Source: a virus
Lineage: Duplodnaviria; Heunggongvirae; Uroviricota; Caudoviricetes
DNA length: 32,667 nt
Direction: 5' to 3' (one strand)
Virus record (IMG/VR): IMGVR_UViG_2563366964_000008
Location: 1-32,667 of that record
In this document: in pieces, positions 1 to 32,667 of the stretch
Layout of the letters: each line of letters starts with the position of its first letter
How positions within the stretch are numbered: the stretch's first letter is position 1
Notes under the pieces: model-generated
Told to the model about the DNA's origin: nothing
Database searches by the model: none
The model's input: the letters and a program-made list of their open reading frames with translations, nothing else
Translations under genes and position numbers: made by a program

Positions 1-1128
1 TCACAACGCTACTTTGCTCCATCCTTTACCTCGATCATCATGATAACGATCGGTTTGTTGTTGTGTTTTATGACCAAGTAGTTTTTGTGTGTCTAACCCC
101 TGTTCTTTGTACAGACGTTCAGATAAAGACCTTTGTTCATGGAATGTCGCGGGCGAGCCATCACCCCAGTCGATTCCTGCCAAATCCCTCGCTTTACTGA
201 AATTCATCGTCAATGTGTTGGATTTAACCTGTGCCCCACGTTCTGCCTGTGAAGTAGTACGGAAAAAATGTACAAGGTATGGGCTGACTGCATAGTCACG
301 GCAGCGGGCAACTACATCGCGTAAACTCCAGTTAATCGCGTTGAGACGAAGAGAAAGAGGAATTGCGATTTTGCTCCCGGTCTTTTCCTGAATGACATGG
401 AGATGATCATCCCAAATATCACTAAATTTCATACGCGAGATATCACCTAACCGCTGGCCAGTAACCAGTGCTAACAGCATAGCATTCCCCATATAACGAT
501 GACTGGCATCTGCGATATCAAAGATTTTTTGCCATTCATCAAGATTCAACCGTTGTCGGGTAATTTTTCTTCTGGGCTGCTTTGTTGCTAATGCTGGATT
601 ATAGCCAGGAGGTACTTCTCCGTAGTGTTGCGCCTCCTTGAATACATCAATCAGGACGGAACGAACTACTTGTGCCATTCTTGGTTGTCCGGCAGCTATA
701 TACTCATCAAGCAATTGTGCTATATCCCTTACATCAACGGCTGAGATCAACTTCATTCCTGCTCGCTCCCTGAGCAAAGATACTGGTTTTGCTTTCTGCT
801 TATAGGTGTTGAGTCTTATATCACCACTTTTCAGCCTGTTATCCTGGATCGCTTGATAGCGATCTAACCAGGTTGACGTTGTGATTGATTTCACTTTGCT
901 GGTTGCGATCCTGTCACTGATAGCTAGAATCTGTCGAGTTCTTTGCTCAGCTAGGCGTGTATTGGCTTCAGTGGCAATAGCAATGGCTTCGGCTTCGTTC
1001 GTTCCCAACGCATGAAATTTCCCTGTCACGGGATGCTTATACCGCCAATAGACTTTATTTACCTTTCTACTATAAAGCGGATATAAGTTAGGGACTGAAA
1101 CATTATTCTTACGCGGTCTGGCTGCCAT
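1..1128 (-). CDS. int: Tyrosine integrase (phage integrase family). The ATG at 1126..1128 is preferred over the GTG at 1129..1131.
   Basis: Track ORF of 376 aa on the minus strand; N-terminal Arg/Lys-rich arm-binding region and a C-terminal catalytic-domain pattern typical of lambda-type integrases; overlapped by an excisionase-like ORF. Confidence 0.9.
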   Translation of the reverse strand: MAARPRKNNVSVPNLYPLYSRKVNKVYWRYKHPVTGKFHALGTNEAEAIAIATEANTRLAEQRTRQILAISDRIATSKVKSITTSTWLDRYQAIQDNRLKSGDIRLNTYKQKAKPVSLLRERAGMKLISAVDVRDIAQLLDEYIAAGQPRMAQVVRSVLIDVFKEAQHYGEVPPGYNPALATKQPRRKITRQRLNLDEWQKIFDIADASHRYMGNAMLLALVTGQRLGDISRMKFSDIWDDHLHVIQEKTGSKIAIPLSLRLNAINWSLRDVVARCRDYAVSPYLVHFFRTTSQAERGAQVKSNTLTMNFSKARDLAGIDWGDGSPATFHEQRSLSERLYKEQGLDTQKLLGHKTQQQTDRYHDDRGKGWSKVAL

Positions 1129-1354
1129 CACTCAAAATCCGTTGCAAAAGTAATGAGTCATTTTTCTTGATTACTGGTGTTACCAACTCCCCAACTAACT
1201 CGGCGTCCTCACGCACTCGCCATAACCGGCCTTGCTTCATGGCTGGTGGACAAAATAAATTCTGCTTAGCATAACGACGCAATGTGGACACACTTGGAGG
1301 ATTACTTCTGTATTTTTCAGCAGCCCATTCTTCAAGAGTTAACATTTGAAGCAT
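1109..1354 (-). CDS. xis: Excisionase-like small DNA-binding protein
   Basis: 81-aa ORF immediately upstream of and overlapping int by about 20 nt; AAGGTGA Shine-Dalgarno 6 nt before the ATG; basic, Trp-containing small protein typical of Xis/AlpA-type proteins. Confidence 0.7.
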   Translation of the reverse strand: MLQMLTLEEWAAEKYRSNPPSVSTLRRYAKQNLFCPPAMKQGRLWRVREDAELVGELVTPVIKKNDSLLLQRILSDGSQTA

Positions 1355-7576: not shown

Positions 7577-8572
7577 GTGACCGTGAGAGCATTACTGACC
7601 CCTGAAATTGCCCCGCGTATGGGGATCGTATTGTTCAGGCCAGGTTCAGAGCTGATGCCCCTGTTTATGCAGGGGCGTGTCCTGCTGGAGCCTGAGCCAG
7701 AACGTTATTCATCTTTCGCCAGTGGTGCCGTTCCGGCGGCATCACAACCGCTGGCGGATGATCCTGCCGTTCGCGCCGTGTTCCGCAATGAGGCAGTGAT
7801 CCGTCGTGCTGGTGGCGTGGAATGTCTTGAAAGCTGGTTACTTCGTGAAAAGGGCTGTCAGTGGCCTCATTCCAACTGGCACAGCGAGAACATGACCACA
7901 ATGCGACACGCGCCGGGAGCAATTCGTCTGTGCTGGCACTGCGATAACCAGCTGCGCGATCAGTTCACGGAACGGCTGGAATCAATGGCAACGGATAACT
8001 GTGCCCGCTGGGTGTTGTCTGTTGTGCGTCGGGATCTCGGTTTTGATGACAGTCACGTTGTGACAATGCCGGAACTGTGCTGGTGGCTGATTCGTAATGA
8101 TCTGGCGGATGCCTTACCGGAAAGTGCAGCCCGTAAGGCACTGAGATTACCGAAGCCTGTTGTGCCGTCTGTTACCCGGGAAAGTGACCTTGTGCCTTCG
8201 GTTCCTGCCACCAGCATCATCCAGGATAAGGCGAAAAAGGTGCTGGCGCTGAAAGTGGATCCGGAGTCGCCGGAGTCTTTTATGTTACGCCCAAAACGTC
8301 GCCGCTGGGTTAATGAAAAGTACACGCGCTGGGTTAAGACACAGCCGTGTGCATGTTGTGGAAAGCCTGCTGATGATCCCCACCACTTGATAGGCCACTG
8401 TCAGGGTGGAATGGGTACAAAAGCGCATGACCTCTTTGTATTGCCTTTGTGCAGAAAGCATCACGACGAGTTGCATGCGGACACTGTGGCATTTGAAGAG
8501 AAGTATGGTTCCCAACTGGAGCTAATTTTTCGATTTATCGATCGCGCGCTGGCAATTGGTGTGCTGGCCTGA
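7577..8572 (+). CDS. DUF968-like protein with C-terminal HNH-like Cys/His motif
   Basis: 331-aa ORF; C-terminus PCACCGKPADDPHHLIGHCQGG...LCRKHHDELH; start may be the GTG at 7583 rather than 7577. Confidence 0.55.
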   Translation: MTVRALLTPEIAPRMGIVLFRPGSELMPLFMQGRVLLEPEPERYSSFASGAVPAASQPLADDPAVRAVFRNEAVIRRAGGVECLESWLLREKGCQWPHSNWHSENMTTMRHAPGAIRLCWHCDNQLRDQFTERLESMATDNCARWVLSVVRRDLGFDDSHVVTMPELCWWLIRNDLADALPESAARKALRLPKPVVPSVTRESDLVPSVPATSIIQDKAKKVLALKVDPESPESFMLRPKRRRWVNEKYTRWVKTQPCACCGKPADDPHHLIGHCQGGMGTKAHDLFVLPLCRKHHDELHADTVAFEEKYGSQLELIFRFIDRALAIGVLA

Positions 8573-8589
8573 TTTTGTGGAGAGATTTG

Positions 8590-8937
8590 ATGCGTGATAT
8601 GTACGAGGTTTTGGACCGCTGGGGAGCATGGGCAGCAGCAGATAACAGCGGAGTGGACTGGCAGCCGATCGCGGCAGGCTTCAAGGGGCTTTTACCACAC
8701 GGTAAAAAGTCACGCCTCCAGTGTGATGATGATGAAGGGATCATGATAGACGGTTGTGTGGTGCGGTTGCGTAAATATAAACCAGAAGAATATGAACTGA
8801 TCATTGCTCACTTTGTTATAGGTATCTCACTGCGTTCTATCGCGAAGAAACGCAGATGCTCGGATGGCACAATTAGGAAGGAGCTGCAAACTGCAATGGG
8901 ATTTGTTGAGGGATGCATATCAATTTTGTTTTGGTGA
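8590..8937 (+). CDS. Q: Late-gene antiterminator Q (QuuD-like family)
   Basis: Sequence MRDMYEVLDRWGAWAA...FKGLLP...CDDDEG resembles recalled Q/QuuD proteins; GGAG Shine-Dalgarno before the ATG at 8590 (track start 8575). Confidence 0.7.
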   Translation: MRDMYEVLDRWGAWAAADNSGVDWQPIAAGFKGLLPHGKKSRLQCDDDEGIMIDGCVVRLRKYKPEEYELIIAHFVIGISLRSIAKKRRCSDGTIRKELQTAMGFVEGCISILFW

Positions 8938-8941
8938 TTGC

Positions 8942-8963
8942 AGAAGCCGCTTCAGCGGCTTCT
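8942..8963. terminator. Hairpin (9-bp stem agaagccgc/gcggcttct, loop ttca) between convergent Q and the accessory cassette
   Basis: Perfect inverted repeat read from the sequence; no clear U-run on either side, so possibly a bidirectional terminator or RNA-stability element. Confidence 0.4.
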
Positions 8964-8965
8964 AA

Positions 8966-9448
8966 TTAAGTATTCATGTTTTTCTTCTCTTCAAACAATT
9001 CCTTTATTTTCAATGGAATGAAAGTTGATTGTATGAATGAGAAACATGTTAAAAATGAGATTGAATATGCAATAGTGGTTTTTGTATATTCAAAATAAAT
9101 ACCTGAATGTGTTTTATCCTTGGATAAAAGATAAAATACAAATATTAATGCAAGTGTAATTATATACATCAAGAATAGAGTATAGCTTTTTACAAAGCGC
9201 ATATAAAATCGAGTGCTCTGGTTGGCTTTGTCTAATGCATTAAGTGATTTCGAAATTGAGGAGTTCTCACCAGACATAGTAATGACTAGCAATAAAAAAC
9301 CGGATAGGATTGAGAAAACATTTGCAACAAGATTTAATGCGTCATTGTTATTTGTTAAGCTGTTTGTGAGATATTTTGAGAAAAAGAAGGAGGCTAGGAA
9401 GTTTCCTGTGGTAATTATAATTCCCGTCCAGTTATAATCTTTAAACAT
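8966..9448 (-). CDS. Hypothetical membrane protein with four hydrophobic segments, second gene of the accessory cassette
   Basis: 160-aa ORF; hydrophobic stretches WTGIIITTGNFLASFFF, LVANVFSILSGFLLLVITM, YTLFLMYIITLALIFVFYLL, IAYSISFLTCFSFIQSTFIPL; GGGGAGG Shine-Dalgarno; visibly AT-rich DNA. Confidence 0.7.
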   Translation of the reverse strand: MFKDYNWTGIIITTGNFLASFFFSKYLTNSLTNNNDALNLVANVFSILSGFLLLVITMSGENSSISKSLNALDKANQSTRFYMRFVKSYTLFLMYIITLALIFVFYLLSKDKTHSGIYFEYTKTTIAYSISFLTCFSFIQSTFIPLKIKELFEEKKNMNT

Positions 9449-9472
9449 ATGGCCTCCCCGTTTTTAAGTATA

Positions 9473-10294
9473 TTATAACTCATTTGTGACAAAATGCTCT
9501 AAAATTTCATGAGCATATTTGCTGGAAATTGTTTGCGAGCCGTATGGTAACGTGTAGTAAATCTTTGTAAGTTTCATGTCATCGCTAGTGATTTTCTCTC
9601 CTTTTTTAGTTTCAAAGTAAAAGTCACTGTTTAAATCAGATATCCAAGGCGTCGGATTGTTTTCAATTGATGCAGCAACGGCAGGGTTTCCTCTGGCATC
9701 GATAGTAAAATGGCCACTTATTCCTGTTTGTTTTAATTTTGGCTCTTTTTTTACAAACACAGATAAGAAACTAGGCTTGTTAACAAAATCTGATTCATGC
9801 ACGTTGAAATTCACATGTACAGCGCGCAAACCATCATCTTTGACTTTTTGGATTACATTTTTCTTTAAGATAGCTGACGGTATAATATCTATGCCATAGC
9901 ATTTGAAGATTTTTGCTATTTTGACTTCACTCCAGTTAGTGGATATTTGAAGGAGTGAAGCAATTTGATTATCCTTAACCATAAAGAAGGCATGTAAATT
10001 GTCAAAATTTTCAACATCTAACAAATCTTTAGTGTTAGGTTTATTTGGGGTGATCGACACTTCTTCTTTCGGATTGTATAAAGAAAAATGTAAGTAATGG
10101 ATATTACCTTTAGTGCTAAATTCTTTTAATTTTAAATGCCTGTTAGTTGATAACTGGATTATGGAACCCTGTACAAATTTATTATTTGTTGATATTTGCT
10201 GAAATAAATTACCCTTCCCGTCAAGGTTCACATTAAAAGCCCTAACTTGACATTTCTTTGTTAAATTGTTTTTTTTGGTATTAGAAAAGTTCAT
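9473..10294 (-). CDS. Hypothetical 273-aa soluble protein, first gene of the accessory cassette
   Basis: ORF with AAGGGA Shine-Dalgarno; Lys/Asn-rich, no hydrophobic segments, no motif I recognise; 24-nt gap to the downstream membrane-protein gene. Confidence 0.7.
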   Translation of the reverse strand: MNFSNTKKNNLTKKCQVRAFNVNLDGKGNLFQQISTNNKFVQGSIIQLSTNRHLKLKEFSTKGNIHYLHFSLYNPKEEVSITPNKPNTKDLLDVENFDNLHAFFMVKDNQIASLLQISTNWSEVKIAKIFKCYGIDIIPSAILKKNVIQKVKDDGLRAVHVNFNVHESDFVNKPSFLSVFVKKEPKLKQTGISGHFTIDARGNPAVAASIENNPTPWISDLNSDFYFETKKGEKITSDDMKLTKIYYTLPYGSQTISSKYAHEILEHFVTNEL

Positions 10295-12571: not shown

Positions 12572-12922
12572 ATGCCCCCTCGAACCCCAAAAGCCTGCCG
12601 TGTTCGCGGCTGCCGCTCTACAACCACAGACCCGTCAGGCTACTGCGAAAGCCACAAAAGCGAAGGCTGGAAGCAATACAAACCAGGACAATCCCGTCAT
12701 CAGCGCGGCTACGGTTCGAAGTGGGACAGTATCCGCGCGCGTGTCCTGAAGCGTGACAAAGGCCTGTGTCAGTTATGTCTGCGCGCTGGTGTGGTGCGTG
12801 AGGCGAAAACTGTTGACCACATCATCCCTAAAGCGCATGGCGGCACTGATGCCGACTGTAATCTGCAGAGTCTGTGCTGGCCGTGTCATAAGGCGAAGAC
12901 GGCCCGTGAACGGCTTAAGTGA
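12572..12922 (+). CDS. HNH endonuclease (terminase-associated)
   Basis: 116-aa ORF; Cys pairs and HNH motif (DHIIPKAHGGTDADCNLQSLCWPCHKAK); immediately upstream of the small terminase. Confidence 0.85.
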   Translation: MPPRTPKACRVRGCRSTTTDPSGYCESHKSEGWKQYKPGQSRHQRGYGSKWDSIRARVLKRDKGLCQLCLRAGVVREAKTVDHIIPKAHGGTDADCNLQSLCWPCHKAKTARERLK

Positions 12923-28271: not shown

Positions 28272-29319
28272 TGAATTTCAGCGCCCGACGCTGGCAGAAA
28301 ATATCAGTATGCTCCGTAACGATTTATTCGCCAGGCTGGACGTCAGCGACACGCTCCGGCGCATGGATGAAGACGTGCGGGCAAAGGTGTATGCGGCGGC
28401 GCTGCATACGGTTTACGGTTACATCGATTATCTGGCAATGAACATGCTGCCTGACCTGTGCGATGAGTCCTGGCTGGCGCGACATGCTGCGATGAAACGG
28501 TGTCCGCGCAAGGGGGCCACTGCTGCCAGCGGGTATATGCGCTGGGAAGGTGTCAGCGATGGGCTGAAGGTGACCGCCGGGAGTGTTATTCAACGCGATG
28601 ACCTGGTTCAGTACACGGCAACTGCCGATGCAACCAGCTCCGGTGGTGTCCTGCGCGTGCCGATCGCCTGCTCAAGTGCAGGTGCGGTCGGTAACGCTGA
28701 CGACGGTACGTCATTAATCCTGGTCACGCCGGTGAATGGTCTGCCGTCTTCCGGTGTGGCAGATACCCTGACTGGCGGATTCGATACTGAAGATCTGGAA
28801 ACGTGGCGCGCCCGCGTCATTGAGCGATATTACTGGACGCCTCAGGGCGGGGCTGACGGGGACTATGTTGTCTGGGCTAAAGAAGTGCCCGGCATTACCC
28901 GCGCATGGACATACCGACACTGGATGGGAACGGGGACTGTCGGTGTGATGATTGCCGGCAGTGACCTGATTAATCCCATTCCGGAAGAATCAACGGAAAC
29001 GGCGGCAAGACAACATATCGGGCCACTGGCCCCGGTGGCAGGCTCTGATTTGTATGTGTTCAGGCCGGTGGCACATACGGTGGATTTTCATATCCGTGTG
29101 ACGCCGGACACACCGGAAATACGGGCTGCCATTACCGCGGAGTTGCGTTCGTTCCTGCTGCGTGATGGTTATCCGCAGGGAGAACTGAAGGTATCGCGTA
29201 TCAGTGAGGCGATTTCCGGTGCGAACGGGGAATACAGCCATCAGTTGCTTGCACCGGCAGACAATATCTCCATTGCAAAAAATGAACTGGCGGTACTGGG
29301 GACGATTTCATGGACGTGA
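28261..29319 (+). CDS. Baseplate J-like protein (Mu gp47-like)
   Basis: 352-aa ORF; conserved position and size. Confidence 0.85.
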
Positions 29320-29894
29320 CAAACGATGATTACATCCGTCTGTTGTCGGCACTGTTGCCCCCCGGTCCGGCGTGGTCAGCCAGCGATCCGGCGATTGCCG
29401 GTGCGGCACCGTCATTAACCCGCGTTCATCAGCGTGCGGATGCCCTGATGCGGGAGCTGGATCCGCGCACCACCAATGAACTGATAAACCGCTGGGAGCG
29501 TCTGTGCGGTCTGCCGGATGAATGTATTCCCGCAGGGACACAGACCCTTCGCCAGCGTCAGCAACGGCTGGATGCGAAGGTTAACCTGGCGGGCGGCATC
29601 AACGAGGATTTTTATCTTGCACAGCTTGCTGCCCTGGGCAGACCGGATGCCACCATCACGCGATACGACAAAAGCACGTTCACCTGCTCATCGGCCTGTA
29701 CTGACGCGGTGAACGCGCCTGAATGGCGGTATTACTGGCAGGTCAACATGCCAGCCGCCACCAACACCACCTGGATGACATGTGGCGATCCCTGTGATTC
29801 CGCACTGCGTATCTGGGGCGACACCGTTGTCGAATGTGTGCTTAACAAACTCTGCCCGTCGCATACCTACGTAATTTTTAAATATCCGGAGTAA
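29310..29894 (+). CDS. Mu gp48-like tail protein (DUF2313 / YmfQ-like)
   Basis: 194-aa ORF preceding the tail-fibre gene; Cys-containing C-terminus. Confidence 0.7.
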
Positions 29895-29897
29895 TCC

Positions 29898-30680
29898 ATG
29901 CATCGTATAGACACGAAAACCGCGCAGAAGGATAAGTTCGGCGCGGGTAAGAACGGTTTTACCCGTGGTAACCCCCAGACCGGCACGCCTGCCACCGATC
30001 TGGATGATGACTACTTTGACATGTTGCAGGAAGAGCTTTGTGGCGTGGTGGAGGCATCCGGTGCCAGCCTGGAGAAGGGGCGAAACGACCAGTTGCTTAC
30101 CGCGCTTCGTGCGCTGCTGTTAAGCCGCAAGAATCCGTTTGGTGATATCAAATCGGATGGCACGGTGAAAACGGCTCTCGAAAACCTTGGTTTGGGAGAA
30201 GGCTCAGCATTACCCGTTGGTGTGCCTGTTCCGTGGCCTTCAGCCACTCCGCCAACAGGCTGGCTGAAATGCAACGGAGCAGCTTTTTCTGCTGAAGAAT
30301 ACCCGGAACTGGCAAAGGCTTATCCGACAAATAAATTACCTGATTTACGCGGTGAGTTTATTCGTGGCTGGGATGACGGACGTGGAGTGGATAACGGAAG
30401 GGGATTATTAACGCTTCAGGACGGTGCGATTGTCAGTCATAACCACTATTGGGGAATCTGGACTTCACGAACTAACGACCAGACTCTGGGAAGTTTTACA
30501 GGCACCACGATTTTAAAACAAATCACGCCCCTGTCTCCGGCCATTGACTTCGATAATTACCCAATTCCCAACCCGGCTATTACAGAGGGTGGTGTTGTTG
30601 CGGCAACGACTAAACCTGCAGGTGCGAATGAAACACGCCCACGAAATGTCGCTTTTAACTATATTGTGAGGGCTGCATAA
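29898..30680 (+). CDS. Tail fibre protein: constant N-terminal part (to about 30187) fused to the currently expressed variable C-terminal segment
   Basis: 260-aa ORF; contains the crossover site 30175..30200 in-frame; followed by a tail-fibre assembly gene. Confidence 0.8.
30175..30200. repeat. Invertase crossover site 1 (CTCTCGAAAACC-TT-GGTTTGGGAGAA), inside the tail-fibre gene
   Basis: 26-bp site with a 2-bp core; 15-nt inverted identity (TTGGTTTGGGAGAAG) with site 2. Confidence 0.65.
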
Positions 30681-31282
30681 TGAATAACGCAGAATTAAAC
30701 AGTGAATTAATTGCCACTATGGCAGGAGAAATTACTGTTTATAACTTTGACGTCATGAGTCGGGAGTATATTTCAGCTTCAACTGAATATCTTGCTGTTG
30801 GTGTCGGCATTCCGGCATATTCCTGTTTAGATGCTCCAGGCACCTACAAAGCTGGTTATGCAATCTGCCGCTCTGCAGATTTTAACTCATGGGAATATGT
30901 ACCAGACCATCGCGGTGAAATCGTCTATAACACCGAAACGGGAGACGCCAAAGAAATCACAACTCCGGGTGATTACCCCGAAAAAACAACCACTATCGCC
31001 CCGTTAACGCCATACGATAAATGGGATGGTGAGAAATGGGTGACGGATACTGAGACACAGCATAGCGCCGCAGTAGACGCGGCAGAAGCACAACGTCAGT
31101 CACTGATTGATACTGCAATGGCTTCCATTAGTCTGATTCAACTGAAATTGCAGGCCGGGCGGAAGCTGATGCAGGCAGAGACCACCCGACTTAACACTGT
31201 GCTGGATTACATTGACGCGGTGACGGCAACAGATACCAGTACCGCGCCGGATGTCATCTGGCCTGAACTGCCGGAGGAGTAG
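30680..31282 (+). CDS. Tail-fibre assembly protein (U-like), expressed orientation
   Basis: 200-aa ORF immediately after the fibre gene (ATGA-type overlap). Confidence 0.8.
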   Translation: MNNAELNSELIATMAGEITVYNFDVMSREYISASTEYLAVGVGIPAYSCLDAPGTYKAGYAICRSADFNSWEYVPDHRGEIVYNTETGDAKEITTPGDYPEKTTTIAPLTPYDKWDGEKWVTDTETQHSAAVDAAEAQRQSLIDTAMASISLIQLKLQAGRKLMQAETTRLNTVLDYIDAVTATDTSTAPDVIWPELPEE

Positions 31283-31685
31283 GCCATTCAATATCTGGCG
31301 CACTGGAAGTATCGACCAGTTCCAGTGCGTCCAGATAATCCAGCCACAAATTATATTGCGCCAGTTCCTCACCTTTCAGACGACCAATCGCCGCTTTACC
31401 AGGCCATTGTTTACTGTTCATGTATTCGTTGGCCTGATTAACTAATCGCTGTTTATTTGATTCAGCGATTGAGATTAATTCTTCGCTGGTAAGTGGTGGC
31501 GCATCCTGCCATGCTGGAAAACCATTTTTATCTGAACCAAGTATTTTACCATCAGGCCATGCAACTCCTGCGAACTCAGAATAAATAGTAAAGTTTATTT
31601 TCGTAGCGTTCTCAGGAATGGTTTGGCTATCTGGTGAAATATAAAATCCCGAATCAGAGGGATTAAAATAATATGTCTTTTCCAT
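31254..31685 (-). CDS. Alternative tail-fibre assembly protein (U'-like), silent orientation
   Basis: 143-aa minus-strand ORF; C-terminal motif (DTSSAPDIEWPTPP) parallels the plus-strand assembly protein (DTSTAPDVIWPELP). Confidence 0.75.
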   Translation of the reverse strand: MEKTYYFNPSDSGFYISPDSQTIPENATKINFTIYSEFAGVAWPDGKILGSDKNGFPAWQDAPPLTSEELISIAESNKQRLVNQANEYMNSKQWPGKAAIGRLKGEELAQYNLWLDYLDALELVDTSSAPDIEWPTPPAVQAR

Positions 31686-31687
31686 AG

Positions 31688-32086
31688 TTAATACCCCACA
31701 GCCATCCAGTAAATTGAATTTGTTGTAGCAGAAGTGTAAGTAAATCTGATTTTAGTTCTGTTGGTACTTCCAATATCAAAGCCCACAGAACGGGCAGAAG
31801 GATCATTAGTTGAAATAAGAGCGTTTACCGAACGACAAGCAGCAGGGAAAGCTACAGGTAATGTTATATCAACTGTTCCAACACTTCCTCCGGTTGGTGA
31901 GACATAAAAACTCCCCCATTGAATAATCATCCCCCCAGGTAATTTCTGGTATCCATTGGCGGTCAATGAGTTACCAAAGCTGTTCATATCCGGTACCTGA
32001 TTTTCTCCTGTCCCCACATTCCTCTTTGCCGCTTCTCCCAAACCAACGTTTATGAAAATGCAGAAATAACGAGCAAATGGCATCAT
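31688..32086 (-). CDS. Alternative tail-fibre variable C-terminal segment (Sv'-like), promoterless until inversion; the functional part begins at the crossover site (about 32045)
   Basis: Minus-strand ORF in the same frame, relative to the shared repeat, as the constant part of the fibre gene. Confidence 0.7.
   Translation of the reverse strand: MMPFARYFCIFINVGLGEAAKRNVGTGENQVPDMNSFGNSLTANGYQKLPGGMIIQWGSFYVSPTGGSVGTVDITLPVAFPAACRSVNALISTNDPSARSVGFDIGSTNRTKIRFTYTSATTNSIYWMAVGY
32033..32058. repeat. Invertase crossover site 2 (TTCTCCCAAACC-AA-CGTTTATGAAAA), upstream of the invertase gene
   Basis: Inverted copy of site 1; 55 nt upstream of the invertase ATG. Confidence 0.65.
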
Positions 32087-32112
32087 TCCTGCTTTTGTCA
32101 GGGAGATCTACC

Positions 32113-32667
32113 ATGCTTATTGGCTATGTACGTGTGTCAACAAATGACCAGAACACAGATCTACAACGTAATGCGCTGAACTGTGCAGGATGCGAGCTGA
32201 TTTTTGAAGACAAGATAAGCGGTACAAAGTCCGAAAGGCCGGGACTGAAAAAACTGCTCAGGACATTATCGGCAGGTGATACGCTGGTGGTCTGGAAACT
32301 GGACCGACTGGGGCGCAGTATGCGGCATCTTGTCGTGCTGGTGGAGGAGTTGCGCGAACGAGGCATCAACTTTCGTAGTCTGACGGATTCAATTGATACC
32401 AGTACCCCAATGGGGCGCTTTTTCTTTCATGTGATGGGTGCCCTGGCTGAAATGGAGCGTGAACTGATTGTTGAAAGAACAAAAGCTGGACTGGAAGCTG
32501 CTCGCGCACAGGGACGAATTGGTGGACGTCGTCCCAAACTTACACCAGAACAATGGGAACAGGCCGGACGATTAATTGCATCAGGAGTTCCTCGCCAGAA
32601 GGTGGCGATTATCTATGATGTTGGTGTGTCAACTTTGTATAAGAGGTTTCCTGCAGGGGATGAATAA
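32113..32667 (+). CDS. pin: Serine DNA invertase (Gin/Pin/Hin/Cin family)
   Basis: N-terminus MLIGYVRVSTNDQNTDLQRNAL with catalytic Ser and a C-terminal HTH, matching recalled Gin/Pin sequences; the ATG at 32113 is preferred over the track start 32077. Confidence 0.9.
   Translation: MLIGYVRVSTNDQNTDLQRNALNCAGCELIFEDKISGTKSERPGLKKLLRTLSAGDTLVVWKLDRLGRSMRHLVVLVEELRERGINFRSLTDSIDTSTPMGRFFFHVMGALAEMERELIVERTKAGLEAARAQGRIGGRRPKLTPEQWEQAGRLIASGVPRQKVAIIYDVGVSTLYKRFPAGDE

Follow-up and report, generated by a model that had tools for sequence, protein, structure and literature searches.

Host-range switching by inversion of a tail-fibre segment is established for the G segment of phage Mu and the C segment of P1. 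The invertases that depend on Fis and an enhancer (Hin, Gin, Cin and Pin) require such an enhancer in cis; it has two binding sites for Fis and is separated by about 100 bp from whichever crossover site is closer. The P segment of e14 and its crossover sites are said to have been described by Plasterk and van de Putte in 1985.

More recent work has described the P-segment/PinE system further (Goldberg 2014; Kirigo 2025). Inversion of the e14 P segment takes place at TTGGTTTGGGAGAAGG and can be carried out by PinE, PinQ or PinR (PMC12529663), and clonal MG1655-derived cultures hold both e14 orientations together (PMC4272514). According to Kirigo et al. (2025), what the e14 inversion is for 'is not clear', and a role in host defence is proposed. 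A preliminary description of the DNA analysed here had listed Mu G, P1 C and e14 P together as segments that switch host range; this is established for the first two, but not for e14.

We analysed a 32,667-nucleotide stretch of viral DNA (the window), which ends at the stop codon of a pin gene. Its last part is very probably the P-segment/PinE inversion switch, carried by a prophage of the e14 type whose contractile tail resembles those of Mu and SfV. The features of the locus are as follows.

29898..30188, plus strand: constant 5' part of the tail-fibre gene, codons 1-97 (...ALENL), common to both fibre forms
30175..30200: crossover site 1, 26 bp, CTCTCGAAAACC-TT-GGTTTGGGAGAA, core TT at 30187-30188
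30187..32046: invertible segment, 1,860 bp core to core
30189..30680, plus strand: variable cassette A, Collar-domain fibre tip, joined to the constant part (ON); Pfam Collar, E 8e-16
30680..31282, plus strand: tail-fibre assembly gene of cassette A, TfaE-like, 200 aa; Pfam Caudo_TAP, E 5e-30
31254..31685, minus strand: tail-fibre assembly gene of cassette B, 143 aa; Pfam Caudo_TAP, E 5e-30
31688..32044, minus strand: variable cassette B, gp53-like C-terminal fibre tip, facing the invertase (OFF as fibre); Pfam Gp53-like_C, E 7e-19
31688..32086, minus strand: 132-aa ORF, uncertain as a gene, which starts in the spacer between the invertase and site 2 and crosses site 2 into cassette B ('StfE2' configuration)
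32033..32058: crossover site 2, 26 bp, TTCTCCCAAACC-AA-CGTTTATGAAAA, core AA at 32045-32046
32113..32667, plus strand: pinE-type DNA invertase, 184 aa, complete, Ser9 present; Pfam Resolvase and HTH_7
32131..32202, within the invertase gene: putative recombinational (Fis) enhancer, recognised by homology to the one at P1 cin nt 19-90

Comparison with e14, Mu, P1 and P2-like phages

By its sequence, the locus is an allelic variant of the e14 P segment and not another system; the switch is already known, and its difference from K-12 is confined to the cassette alleles. The kinship is closer than the likeness first pointed out, the invertase being 97% identical to K-12 PinE and both 26-bp sites being identical. 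The repeat, TTGGTTTGGGAGAAG(G), agrees with the published one (PMC12529663). The gene order (ymfQ, fibre, tfa, tfa', tip', pin) corresponds to that of K-12 (stfP-tfaP-tfaE-stfE'-pinE), with ymfQ/gp48 directly upstream of the fibre gene. As in K-12, the 3' end of the cassette B assembly gene overlaps the convergent cassette A tfa gene by 29 nt, and the product of the latter is 86% identical to K-12 TfaE. A 99.5%-identical element in strain 00-3076 is located at icd, with mcrA adjoining pinE (pinE-mcrA-icd'), again as in K-12.

The tips are less similar. The Collar tip is 58% identical to K-12 stfE' overall, with divergence after the first ~80 aa, and identity is as low as 33% between the gp53-like tip and the StfP tip. 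The 143-aa assembly protein matches TfaP in its C-terminal half only (68% identity over the C-terminal 78 aa), and the inverted identity is 15 nt in the window vs 16 nt in K-12. The window shows a single orientation, opposite to the K-12 reference, in which the Collar/StfE-type tip is fused to the constant part. The window prophage is also full-length, from integrase to fibre, whereas K-12 e14 is without most head and tail genes.

The Mu G segment has the same general plan: a constant Sc is followed by the Sv-U and U'-Sv' cassettes, and the invertase lies downstream and reads away from them. The half-sites are similar (TTATCCAAAACC / TTCCTGTAAACC), and the core of the proximal site (site 2 here, gixR in Mu) is 67 nt from the start codon of the invertase gene (gin in Mu) in both. 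Like the Mu enhancer, the putative one in the window is contained in the 5' end of the invertase gene, and the invertase aligns over its full length with the Gin structures 3UJ3 and 4M6F (E 6e-95), with Ser9 and the DRLGR motif present. The window differs from Mu in the length of the segment (1.86 kb vs ~3 kb) and of the constant part (97 codons vs ~170) and in its core (TT/AA vs TC/GA), and the fibre tips are unrelated. In Mu, experiments have demonstrated the change of host range, which is a prediction for the window.

The P1 C segment shares the site consensus (cixL, CAATCCTAAACC-TT-GGTTTAAGAGAA) with the same TT core. Its invertase is 84% identical, and the enhancer at cin nt 19-90 aligns with 32131-32202. 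In contrast, cin is upstream of its segment, with cixL overlapping its 3' end, while the window invertase is downstream, its start codon preceded by site 2. P2-like phages (pro483, Fels-2 with Fin) also carry invertible fibre cassettes. The Collar tip in the silent cassette of pro483 is 98.2% identical to the cassette A tip and lies beside an 86%-identical invertase, but on a P2-type tail and baseplate backbone rather than the Mu/SfV-type one of the window prophage. This argues for exchange of fibre-tip cassettes between phage families, the e14-like and the P2-like ones, and not for common descent of the whole locus.

Crossover sites, cassettes and invertase

Exactly two perfect copies of TTGGTTTGGGAGAAG were found in the 32.7-kb window, at 30187-30201 (plus strand) and 32032-32046 (minus strand); a repeat finder extended them to 20 nt at 95% (30182-30201 / 32032-32051). 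Both sites are gix/cix-like, that is, 26 bp long, imperfectly palindromic and in inverted orientation, with matching 2-bp cores (TT / AA) and half-sites that match those of Mu gix and P1 cix. It had been stated that the two sites share a 15-nt inverted identity around the 2-bp core. The repeat and the sites proved exact, but the identity is not symmetric about the core: it comprises the core, the inner half-site and one base, and the outer half-sites of sites 1 and 2 differ. Sequence comparison can locate the crossover only to within the 15-nt identity, and homology to gix, cix and hix would assign it to the 2-bp core.

Site 1 falls within codons 93-101 of the 260-aa fibre ORF (29898-30680), and site 2 ends ~54-55 nt upstream of the invertase ATG at 32113. 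The site pair is kept in ~50 related IMG/VR loci, with segments ranging from ~1.5 to 2.0 kb. In these relatives site 2, where the scan found it, is at a fixed distance of 80 or 81 nt (76 in one locus) before the invertase start. No third crossover site, as a shufflon-like multi-inversion system would have, is present in the window.

The two cassettes are convergent between the sites, and each consists of a fibre tip and its own assembly gene. PDB relatives are T4 gp37 and gp12 for the cassette A tip, and 4MTM and the R1 pyocin fibre 6CXB for the cassette B tip. When the segment was inverted in silico at the core, ...ALENL was joined in frame to GLGEAAKRNVG...MAVGY and a stop codon, giving a 211-aa fibre, with the 143-aa assembly gene starting 2 nt later. 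The preliminary description had claimed a complete switch with site 1 inside the tail-fibre gene, site 2 55 nt upstream of a Gin/Pin-family invertase, an in-frame fusion of ...ENL to GLGEAAKRNVG... and the assembly gene 31254..31685 brought into expression. The structural claims were all borne out: the constant fibre part, two cassettes with Caudo_TAP genes, inverted sites and an intact invertase are in place. A promoter and terminator scan of 29000-32667 gave no more promoter- or terminator-like sites than shuffles, so that promoters internal to the cassettes are neither supported nor excluded, and a search of the whole window with Rfam (gathering thresholds) and a tRNA scan found no RNA genes.

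The invertase has the make-up of a small serine recombinase, with an N-terminal resolvase domain (Pfam E 1.5e-51) containing the active-site serine and a C-terminal HTH that matches HTH_7. Residues that contact Fis and the enhancer have been mapped to helix B (Hin K47/R48/K51) and to helix 1 of the DNA-binding domain (Q151/R154/L155) (McLean et al. 2013). In the alignment with 3UJ3/4M6F the Fis-contact residues are conserved in the window invertase, as K46, K47 and R50, and its EQAGRL motif is the same as in Gin.

The enhancer-homologous region is identical to the annotated P1 cin enhancer at 55/72 positions. It contains two candidate 15-bp Fis cores, at 32134-32148 and 32183-32197. These G-N13-C cores have their centres 49 bp apart, the first ~95 bp from the core of site 2, and both Mu gin and e14 pinE have such cores at the corresponding places. 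The identity with P1 is 76% in this region vs 71% in the next 150 nt and is inseparable from coding conservation. Third-codon-position entropy among 70 distinct invertase genes showed a weak dip at the candidate cores (block 9th of 116). The stretch 32131-32202 may be a recombinational enhancer. As in this family of invertases generally, the switch would presumably depend on host Fis and on DNA supercoiling.

Possible uses of the inversion

The mechanism that we propose is as follows. PinE (32113-32667) would bind both 26-bp sites, with host Fis presumably bound to the enhancer in the first ~90 nt of the invertase gene. It would then cleave at the 2-bp cores (TT at 30187-8, AA at 32045-6), rotate and religate, thereby flipping the 1,860-bp segment. 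Other Pin paralogues in the genome may be able to stand in for PinE. The fibre promoter, the ribosome-binding site and the first 97 codons lie outside the segment, so that whichever cassette faces them would be read as tip plus matching assembly chaperone; the cassettes are presumably expressed solely from the upstream tail operon. In the state seen in the window, the tip would be of the Collar type and its partner the 200-aa TfaE-like protein; in the inverted state, they would be the gp53-like tip and the 143-aa Tfa. A hairpin at the centre of the segment, within 31190-31355, may act as a bidirectional terminator. Phage particles from a lysogen population would then carry one or the other of two receptor-binding tips of unrelated structure. 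Different receptors or hosts are likely, since the tips come from unrelated families (Collar vs gp53-like), and two receptor specificities may reasonably be inferred for them. We sought the receptors through phage homologues of both tips and found unannotated fibre proteins only.

It is also conceivable, but unlikely, that the switch serves the host. The ORF at 31688-32086 would then give a free 132-aa gp53-like tip that masks surface receptors and blocks adsorption by other phages, and inversion would toggle a defence phenotype. In K-12, inversion of e14 makes StfE2, composed of the stfE start and the StfP tip (Kirigo et al. 2025). Over-production of StfE2 reduced T2 adsorption and protected against several phages (Kirigo et al. 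2025). The window has exactly the StfE2 configuration, PGAP annotates the ORF as a CDS in strain 00-3076, and the ATGATG start is conserved in 20/21 distinct spacers of relatives. However, the published support consists of plasmid over-expression and docking, and with no more than 33% identity between the window tip and that of K-12 StfP, the T2 result is not transferable. Non-synonymous differences are seen in the leader peptide (FARYF, VSHNL, VARYL), and the AGGA directly abuts the ATG, which is unfavourable for a ribosome-binding site. For the conserved CATCAT there is another possible explanation: on the plus strand it is part of an extended -10-like element for pin, TGGCATCAT, and Mu carries TGGCATGAT at the same place. 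Furthermore, the window prophage appears complete, which argues that the phage-side function has not been lost. With PADLOC, neither the 132-aa read-through ORF nor the cargo ORFs had a defence match.

A combined version, in which the ORF is transcribed from the spacer in the orientation of the window, its free tip masks the receptor and the switch toggles superinfection exclusion together with the phage fibre, seems improbable. If true, the phages kept out would differ from those in K-12, as the window tip has only 33% identity with that of StfE2.

The inversion mechanism leaves room for a role in host defence; the difference from the fibre switch is one of pay-off only.

Natural inversion and state of the prophage

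Further evidence for a fibre switch was obtained from natural genomes. Both orientations, which the preliminary description had proposed to look for, were found: 21 complete E. coli genomes matched that of the window over its full length, and 10 contained the version inverted in silico, full-length and in one piece (identity up to 99.5%). A single study of pig faeces yielded two isolates, LCP30S3_I5 and HCP5S3_I2, with 0 mismatches over flanks of 10,289 + 10,605 nt, while the 1,860-bp segment was exactly reverse-complemented between them. The same fibre ATG starts a 783-nt fibre CDS in one of these clonal isolates and a 648-nt one in the other. The breakpoints in this pair are at the repeat, which agrees with the expectation that the repeat coincides with the junction in relatives. 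Among the IMG/VR relatives, the Collar junction likewise points either way.

We also considered whether the arrangement is a fossil in which the sites and the invertase are intact but no flipping takes place or no particles are made, so that it has no current consequence. K-12 e14 is a defective remnant, early genes are frameshifted in the close relative in strain 00-3076, and ymfQ is split by IS3 in the clonal pair LCP30S3_I5/HCP5S3_I2. Yet the prophage with the IS3 insertion flipped all the same, as the comparison of these two isolates, alike in the rest of the locus, makes plain. Pin has its full length and its catalytic serine, and the sites do not differ from those with activity proven by experiment. 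In the window, the structural ORFs from terminase to fibre are all open and collinear with an annotated relative at 98.4%, and the viable myovirus SfI is built by the same morphogenesis module. A loss of function of this kind is very unlikely, and the window prophage is probably viable.

Phage vB_EcoM-689R6, whose invertase is 96% identical, was discarded as evidence of viability, being an in-silico prophage call that includes the host genes icd and mnmA.

The idea that the inverted repeat is no recombination site, having arisen by chance or through the homology of two fibre genes, is refuted: both cassettes start with the same GLGE codons and coding alone could give some inverted identity, but an inverted repeat of at least 15 nt was reached in 0/500 first-order Markov resamplings of 29800-32667 (exact repeats with arms at least 100 nt apart; maximum 14, 3 times), the identity ends exactly at the divergence of the cassettes and at site 2 takes in non-coding sequence, the half-sites agree with those of gix and cix, and the natural inversion in the clonal pair breaks within them.

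The locus, read as the P-segment switch of an e14-type prophage, is a clean and complete case of the textbook swap of fibre tips by programmed DNA inversion, in a prophage of full length. Assemblies of the source strain may differ at this locus by switch state alone. The intact prophage offers a setting for two ideas, that inversion of the e14 type changes host range and that it contributes to the defence of the host against phages.

The fibre locus and its crossover sites

The Baseplate_J and Mu gp48/YmfQ genes stand directly upstream of a tail-fibre switch, which is the already known e14 P-segment/PinE system with other cassette alleles, here in an intact prophage. Its parts, with the integrase of the element, are as follows.

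1-1131, minus strand: integrase, lambda-type Arm-binding and integrase domains
29898-30680, plus strand: 260-aa fibre, residues 98-260 with Pfam Collar
30175-30200: site 1, 26-mer CTCTCGAAAACC-TT-GGTTTGGGAGAA
30680-31282, plus strand: 200-aa Caudo_TAP assembly protein (Tfa)
31254-31685, minus strand: 143-aa Caudo_TAP assembly protein (Tfa143)
31688-32044, minus strand: Gp53-like_C fibre tip
32033-32058: site 2, 26-mer TTCTCCCAAACC-AA-CGTTTATGAAAA
32113-32667, plus strand: 184-aa Resolvase and HTH_7 protein (invertase)

The tip of cassette A (Collar tip and 200-aa Tfa) matched the collar regions of T4 gp37 and gp12, and that of cassette B (gp53-like tip and Tfa143) matched AP22 gp53 (4MTM) and the R1 pyocin fibre; structurally, the tips come from unrelated families. 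Common to both Tfa proteins are only the C-terminal ~68 residues (35% identity). Because both tfa genes carry the same C-terminal motif, LDY[IL]DA..DTS[ST]APD..WP, on opposite strands, the centre of the segment (31190-31355) is a long imperfect palindrome, which folds to -67.5 kcal/mol (z = -5.2) and could terminate transcription in both directions, whichever way the segment lies. The 3' ends of the convergent tfa genes overlap by 29 nt (31254-31282), as they do in K-12 e14.

The inverted repeat reported in the preliminary description was recovered at the same places by exact-match search and with a repeat finder. Within the window, exact copies of TTGGTTTGGGAGAAG were found only at 30187-30201 (plus strand) and 32032-32046 (minus strand), and the repeat finder lengthened the pair to 20 nt at 95%. 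When 29800-32667 was resampled 500 times under a first-order Markov model, a separated exact inverted repeat of 15 nt never appeared; the largest was 14 nt, in 3 of the 500 runs. The 15-nt identity had been described as lying around a 2-bp core. The core is indeed inside it, but the identity spans the core and the inner half-site only, the outer half-sites of the two sites being unlike, a minor correction. Comparison of sequences narrows the crossover to these 15 nt and no further; its placement at the core dinucleotide rests on homology to other invertase sites. Site 1 falls within fibre codons 93-101, and the invertase ATG starts 54 nt beyond the end of site 2. A relaxed search for AAACCNNGGTTT revealed no further crossover site inside the segment.

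Inversion in E. coli genomes and in relatives

Inverting the segment in silico at the core dinucleotides yielded an in-frame 211-aa fibre ending in ...MAVGY*, in agreement with the predicted fusion, and the 143-aa tfa gene then started 2 nt past the fibre stop. Two observations had been named beforehand as speaking against a switch: a single orientation with a disrupted invertase, or junctions away from the repeat; neither was borne out. Among 5,426 complete E. coli genomes (coverage >=80%), both orientations occurred, that of the window in 21 and the inverted construct in 10, each matched in one piece and at up to 99.5% identity.

The strongest evidence for inversion came from LCP30S3_I5 and HCP5S3_I2, two isolates of one UK pig-faeces study (chromosomes of 5,270,552 and 5,270,553 bp), whose copies of the switch locus are 96% identical to the window. 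Their left (10,289 nt) and right (10,605 nt) flanks are identical to each other, while the repeat delimits a 1,860-bp segment that is exactly reverse-complemented, at 0 mismatches, from one isolate to the other; the breakpoints thus lie at the repeat. From one start codon, PGAP called a fibre of 783 nt in one isolate and of 648 nt in the other. In both isolates (8077-9997 of loci L086 and L087) the prophage lies near paoCD/ykgR, not icd, and ymfQ is interrupted by an IS3 element. The segment flipped despite this split gene, and therefore inversion goes on in a prophage that is probably unable to make a baseplate.

In ~50 IMG/VR relatives of the invertase, site 2 was fixed 80 or 81 nt (76 in one locus) before the invertase start and site 1 lay 1.6-2.1 kb upstream, so that the cassettes vary and the sites are constant. 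The Collar-cassette junction faced the constant part of the fibre in ~20 loci and the invertase in ~15. Some relatives had odd layouts: L016 (1590-2201) has an invertase gene on each side of the segment, the second being inverted and only 80% identical; the contig of L042 (1-52) breaks off after 52 nt of a second copy, in inverted orientation, of the invertase-proximal spacer; and in L011 (1747-2345) and L064 (1772-2642) the constant fibre 5' part and ymfQ are inverted relative to pin. Either larger rearrangements between prophages, mediated by Pin, or misassemblies could account for them.

Relation to e14 and content of the prophage

Both the observation and its interpretation as an inversion switch were correct. 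Plasterk & van de Putte (1985) reportedly described the P segment and Pin, and Mehta et al. (2004) described e14. The gene order is that of e14 in K-12 MG1655 (ymfQ, ycfK/stfP, tfaP, tfaE, stfE', pinE, mcrA, icd'), in which both 26-bp sites are identical to ours and PinE is 97% identical to the invertase. The identity of strain 00-3076 to the window was 99.5% across the switch and 98.4% across 20 kb, and there mcrA and then an icd remnant come after the element.

The window, which extends from the integrase to the pin stop codon with open ORFs for repressor, replication, Q, lysis, terminase, portal, capsid, sheath, tube, tape measure and baseplate, is therefore not the remnant seen in K-12 but a full-length e14-type prophage. 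Two antisense ORFs of 160 and 273 aa (8966-9448 and 9473-10294, both minus strand) lie between the Q antiterminator and holin genes, a typical cargo position; they gave no Pfam family above cutoff and no PADLOC match. In strain 00-3076, whose prophage is otherwise 94-98% identical, this slot holds other genes, including an MBL-fold hydrolase. An HNH endonuclease gene (12572-12922, annotated from a 98%-identical relative) directly precedes the small and large terminase genes, a gene order often seen in cos-packaging HK97-like head modules. The morphogenesis module of the window is also the one that builds the viable Shigella myovirus SfI (PMC3636060).

The alleles differ from those of K-12. In the K-12 reference it is the gp53-like (StfP) tip that is fused; in the window it is the Collar (StfE-type) tip, a state that corresponds to "inverted" in the terms of Kirigo et al. 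2025 (PMC12529663). The gp53-like tips are 33% identical; the Collar tips are identical over ~80 residues and diverge after (58% overall); TfaE is 86% identical to the 200-aa Tfa, while TfaP matches Tfa143 in the C-terminal 78 residues only. The Collar tip (30189-30680) is 98.2% identical in protein to the silent, invertase-proximal cassette of the P2-like pro483 (NC_028943, 21298-21786). Cassettes therefore move between phage families, and the sequence likeness indicates a recent exchange between e14-like and P2-like phages.

Invertase, candidate enhancer and possible benefit of the switch

The half-sites of both sites match Mu gix and P1 cix, and in Mu gixR-gin the distance from core to start codon is 67 nt, exactly as for site 2. 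The invertase aligned end to end with Gin crystal structures, with Ser9 kept, and retains the basic helix-B residues K46, K47 and R50 and the Q-x-x-R-L motif of DBD helix 1, residues specific to Fis/enhancer-dependent invertases (McLean et al. 2013). The annotated enhancer of P1 cin (nt 19-90) aligns with 32131-32202 (55/72 positions). Candidate G-N13-C cores lie at 32134-32148 and 32183-32197, positions shared with gin and pinE; their centres are 49 bp apart, the first ~95 bp from the site 2 core. Because the stretch also encodes protein, is hardly more identical to P1 (76%) than the 150 nt after it (71%) and shows a modest dip in third-position entropy, we call the enhancer present by homology and infer its function.

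Clonal MG1655-derived cultures hold both orientations side by side (Goldberg et al. 2014, PMC4272514). Kirigo et al. 2025 (PMC12529663) showed that the segment is flipped at TTGGTTTGGGAGAAGG by PinE, PinQ and PinR. They also detected inversions in 33% of a set of 562 E. coli genomes, and wrote that for e14 the function of inversion "is not clear". They proposed that the inverted state gives StfE2, a protein with its start in the pin-proximal spacer and the StfP tip as its end, which would block T2 adsorption. The window holds this configuration, as a 132-aa ORF (31688-32086, minus strand) starts with MMPFARYFCIFINV and crosses site 2 into the gp53-like tip, and its ATGATG start is kept in 20 of 21 distinct spacers of relatives. 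However, the peptide from ATGATG to site 2 has non-synonymous changes among these spacers, the tip is only 33% identical to that of K-12, and PADLOC gave no match for the read-through protein. Moreover, ATGATG is part of the reverse complement of TGGCATCAT, an extended -10-like element for pin on the plus strand. Relatives keep TGGCATCAT, which lies at 32078-32086 in the spacer (32059-32112), and the equivalent place in Mu reads TGGCATGAT; a consensus promoter scan did not report this element. A benefit through a read-through protein that blocks phage adsorption is a minor alternative, compatible with a change of fibre. As the tips are unrelated and each comes with its own chaperone, the two orientations would likely provide two receptor specificities, as the preliminary description had proposed.
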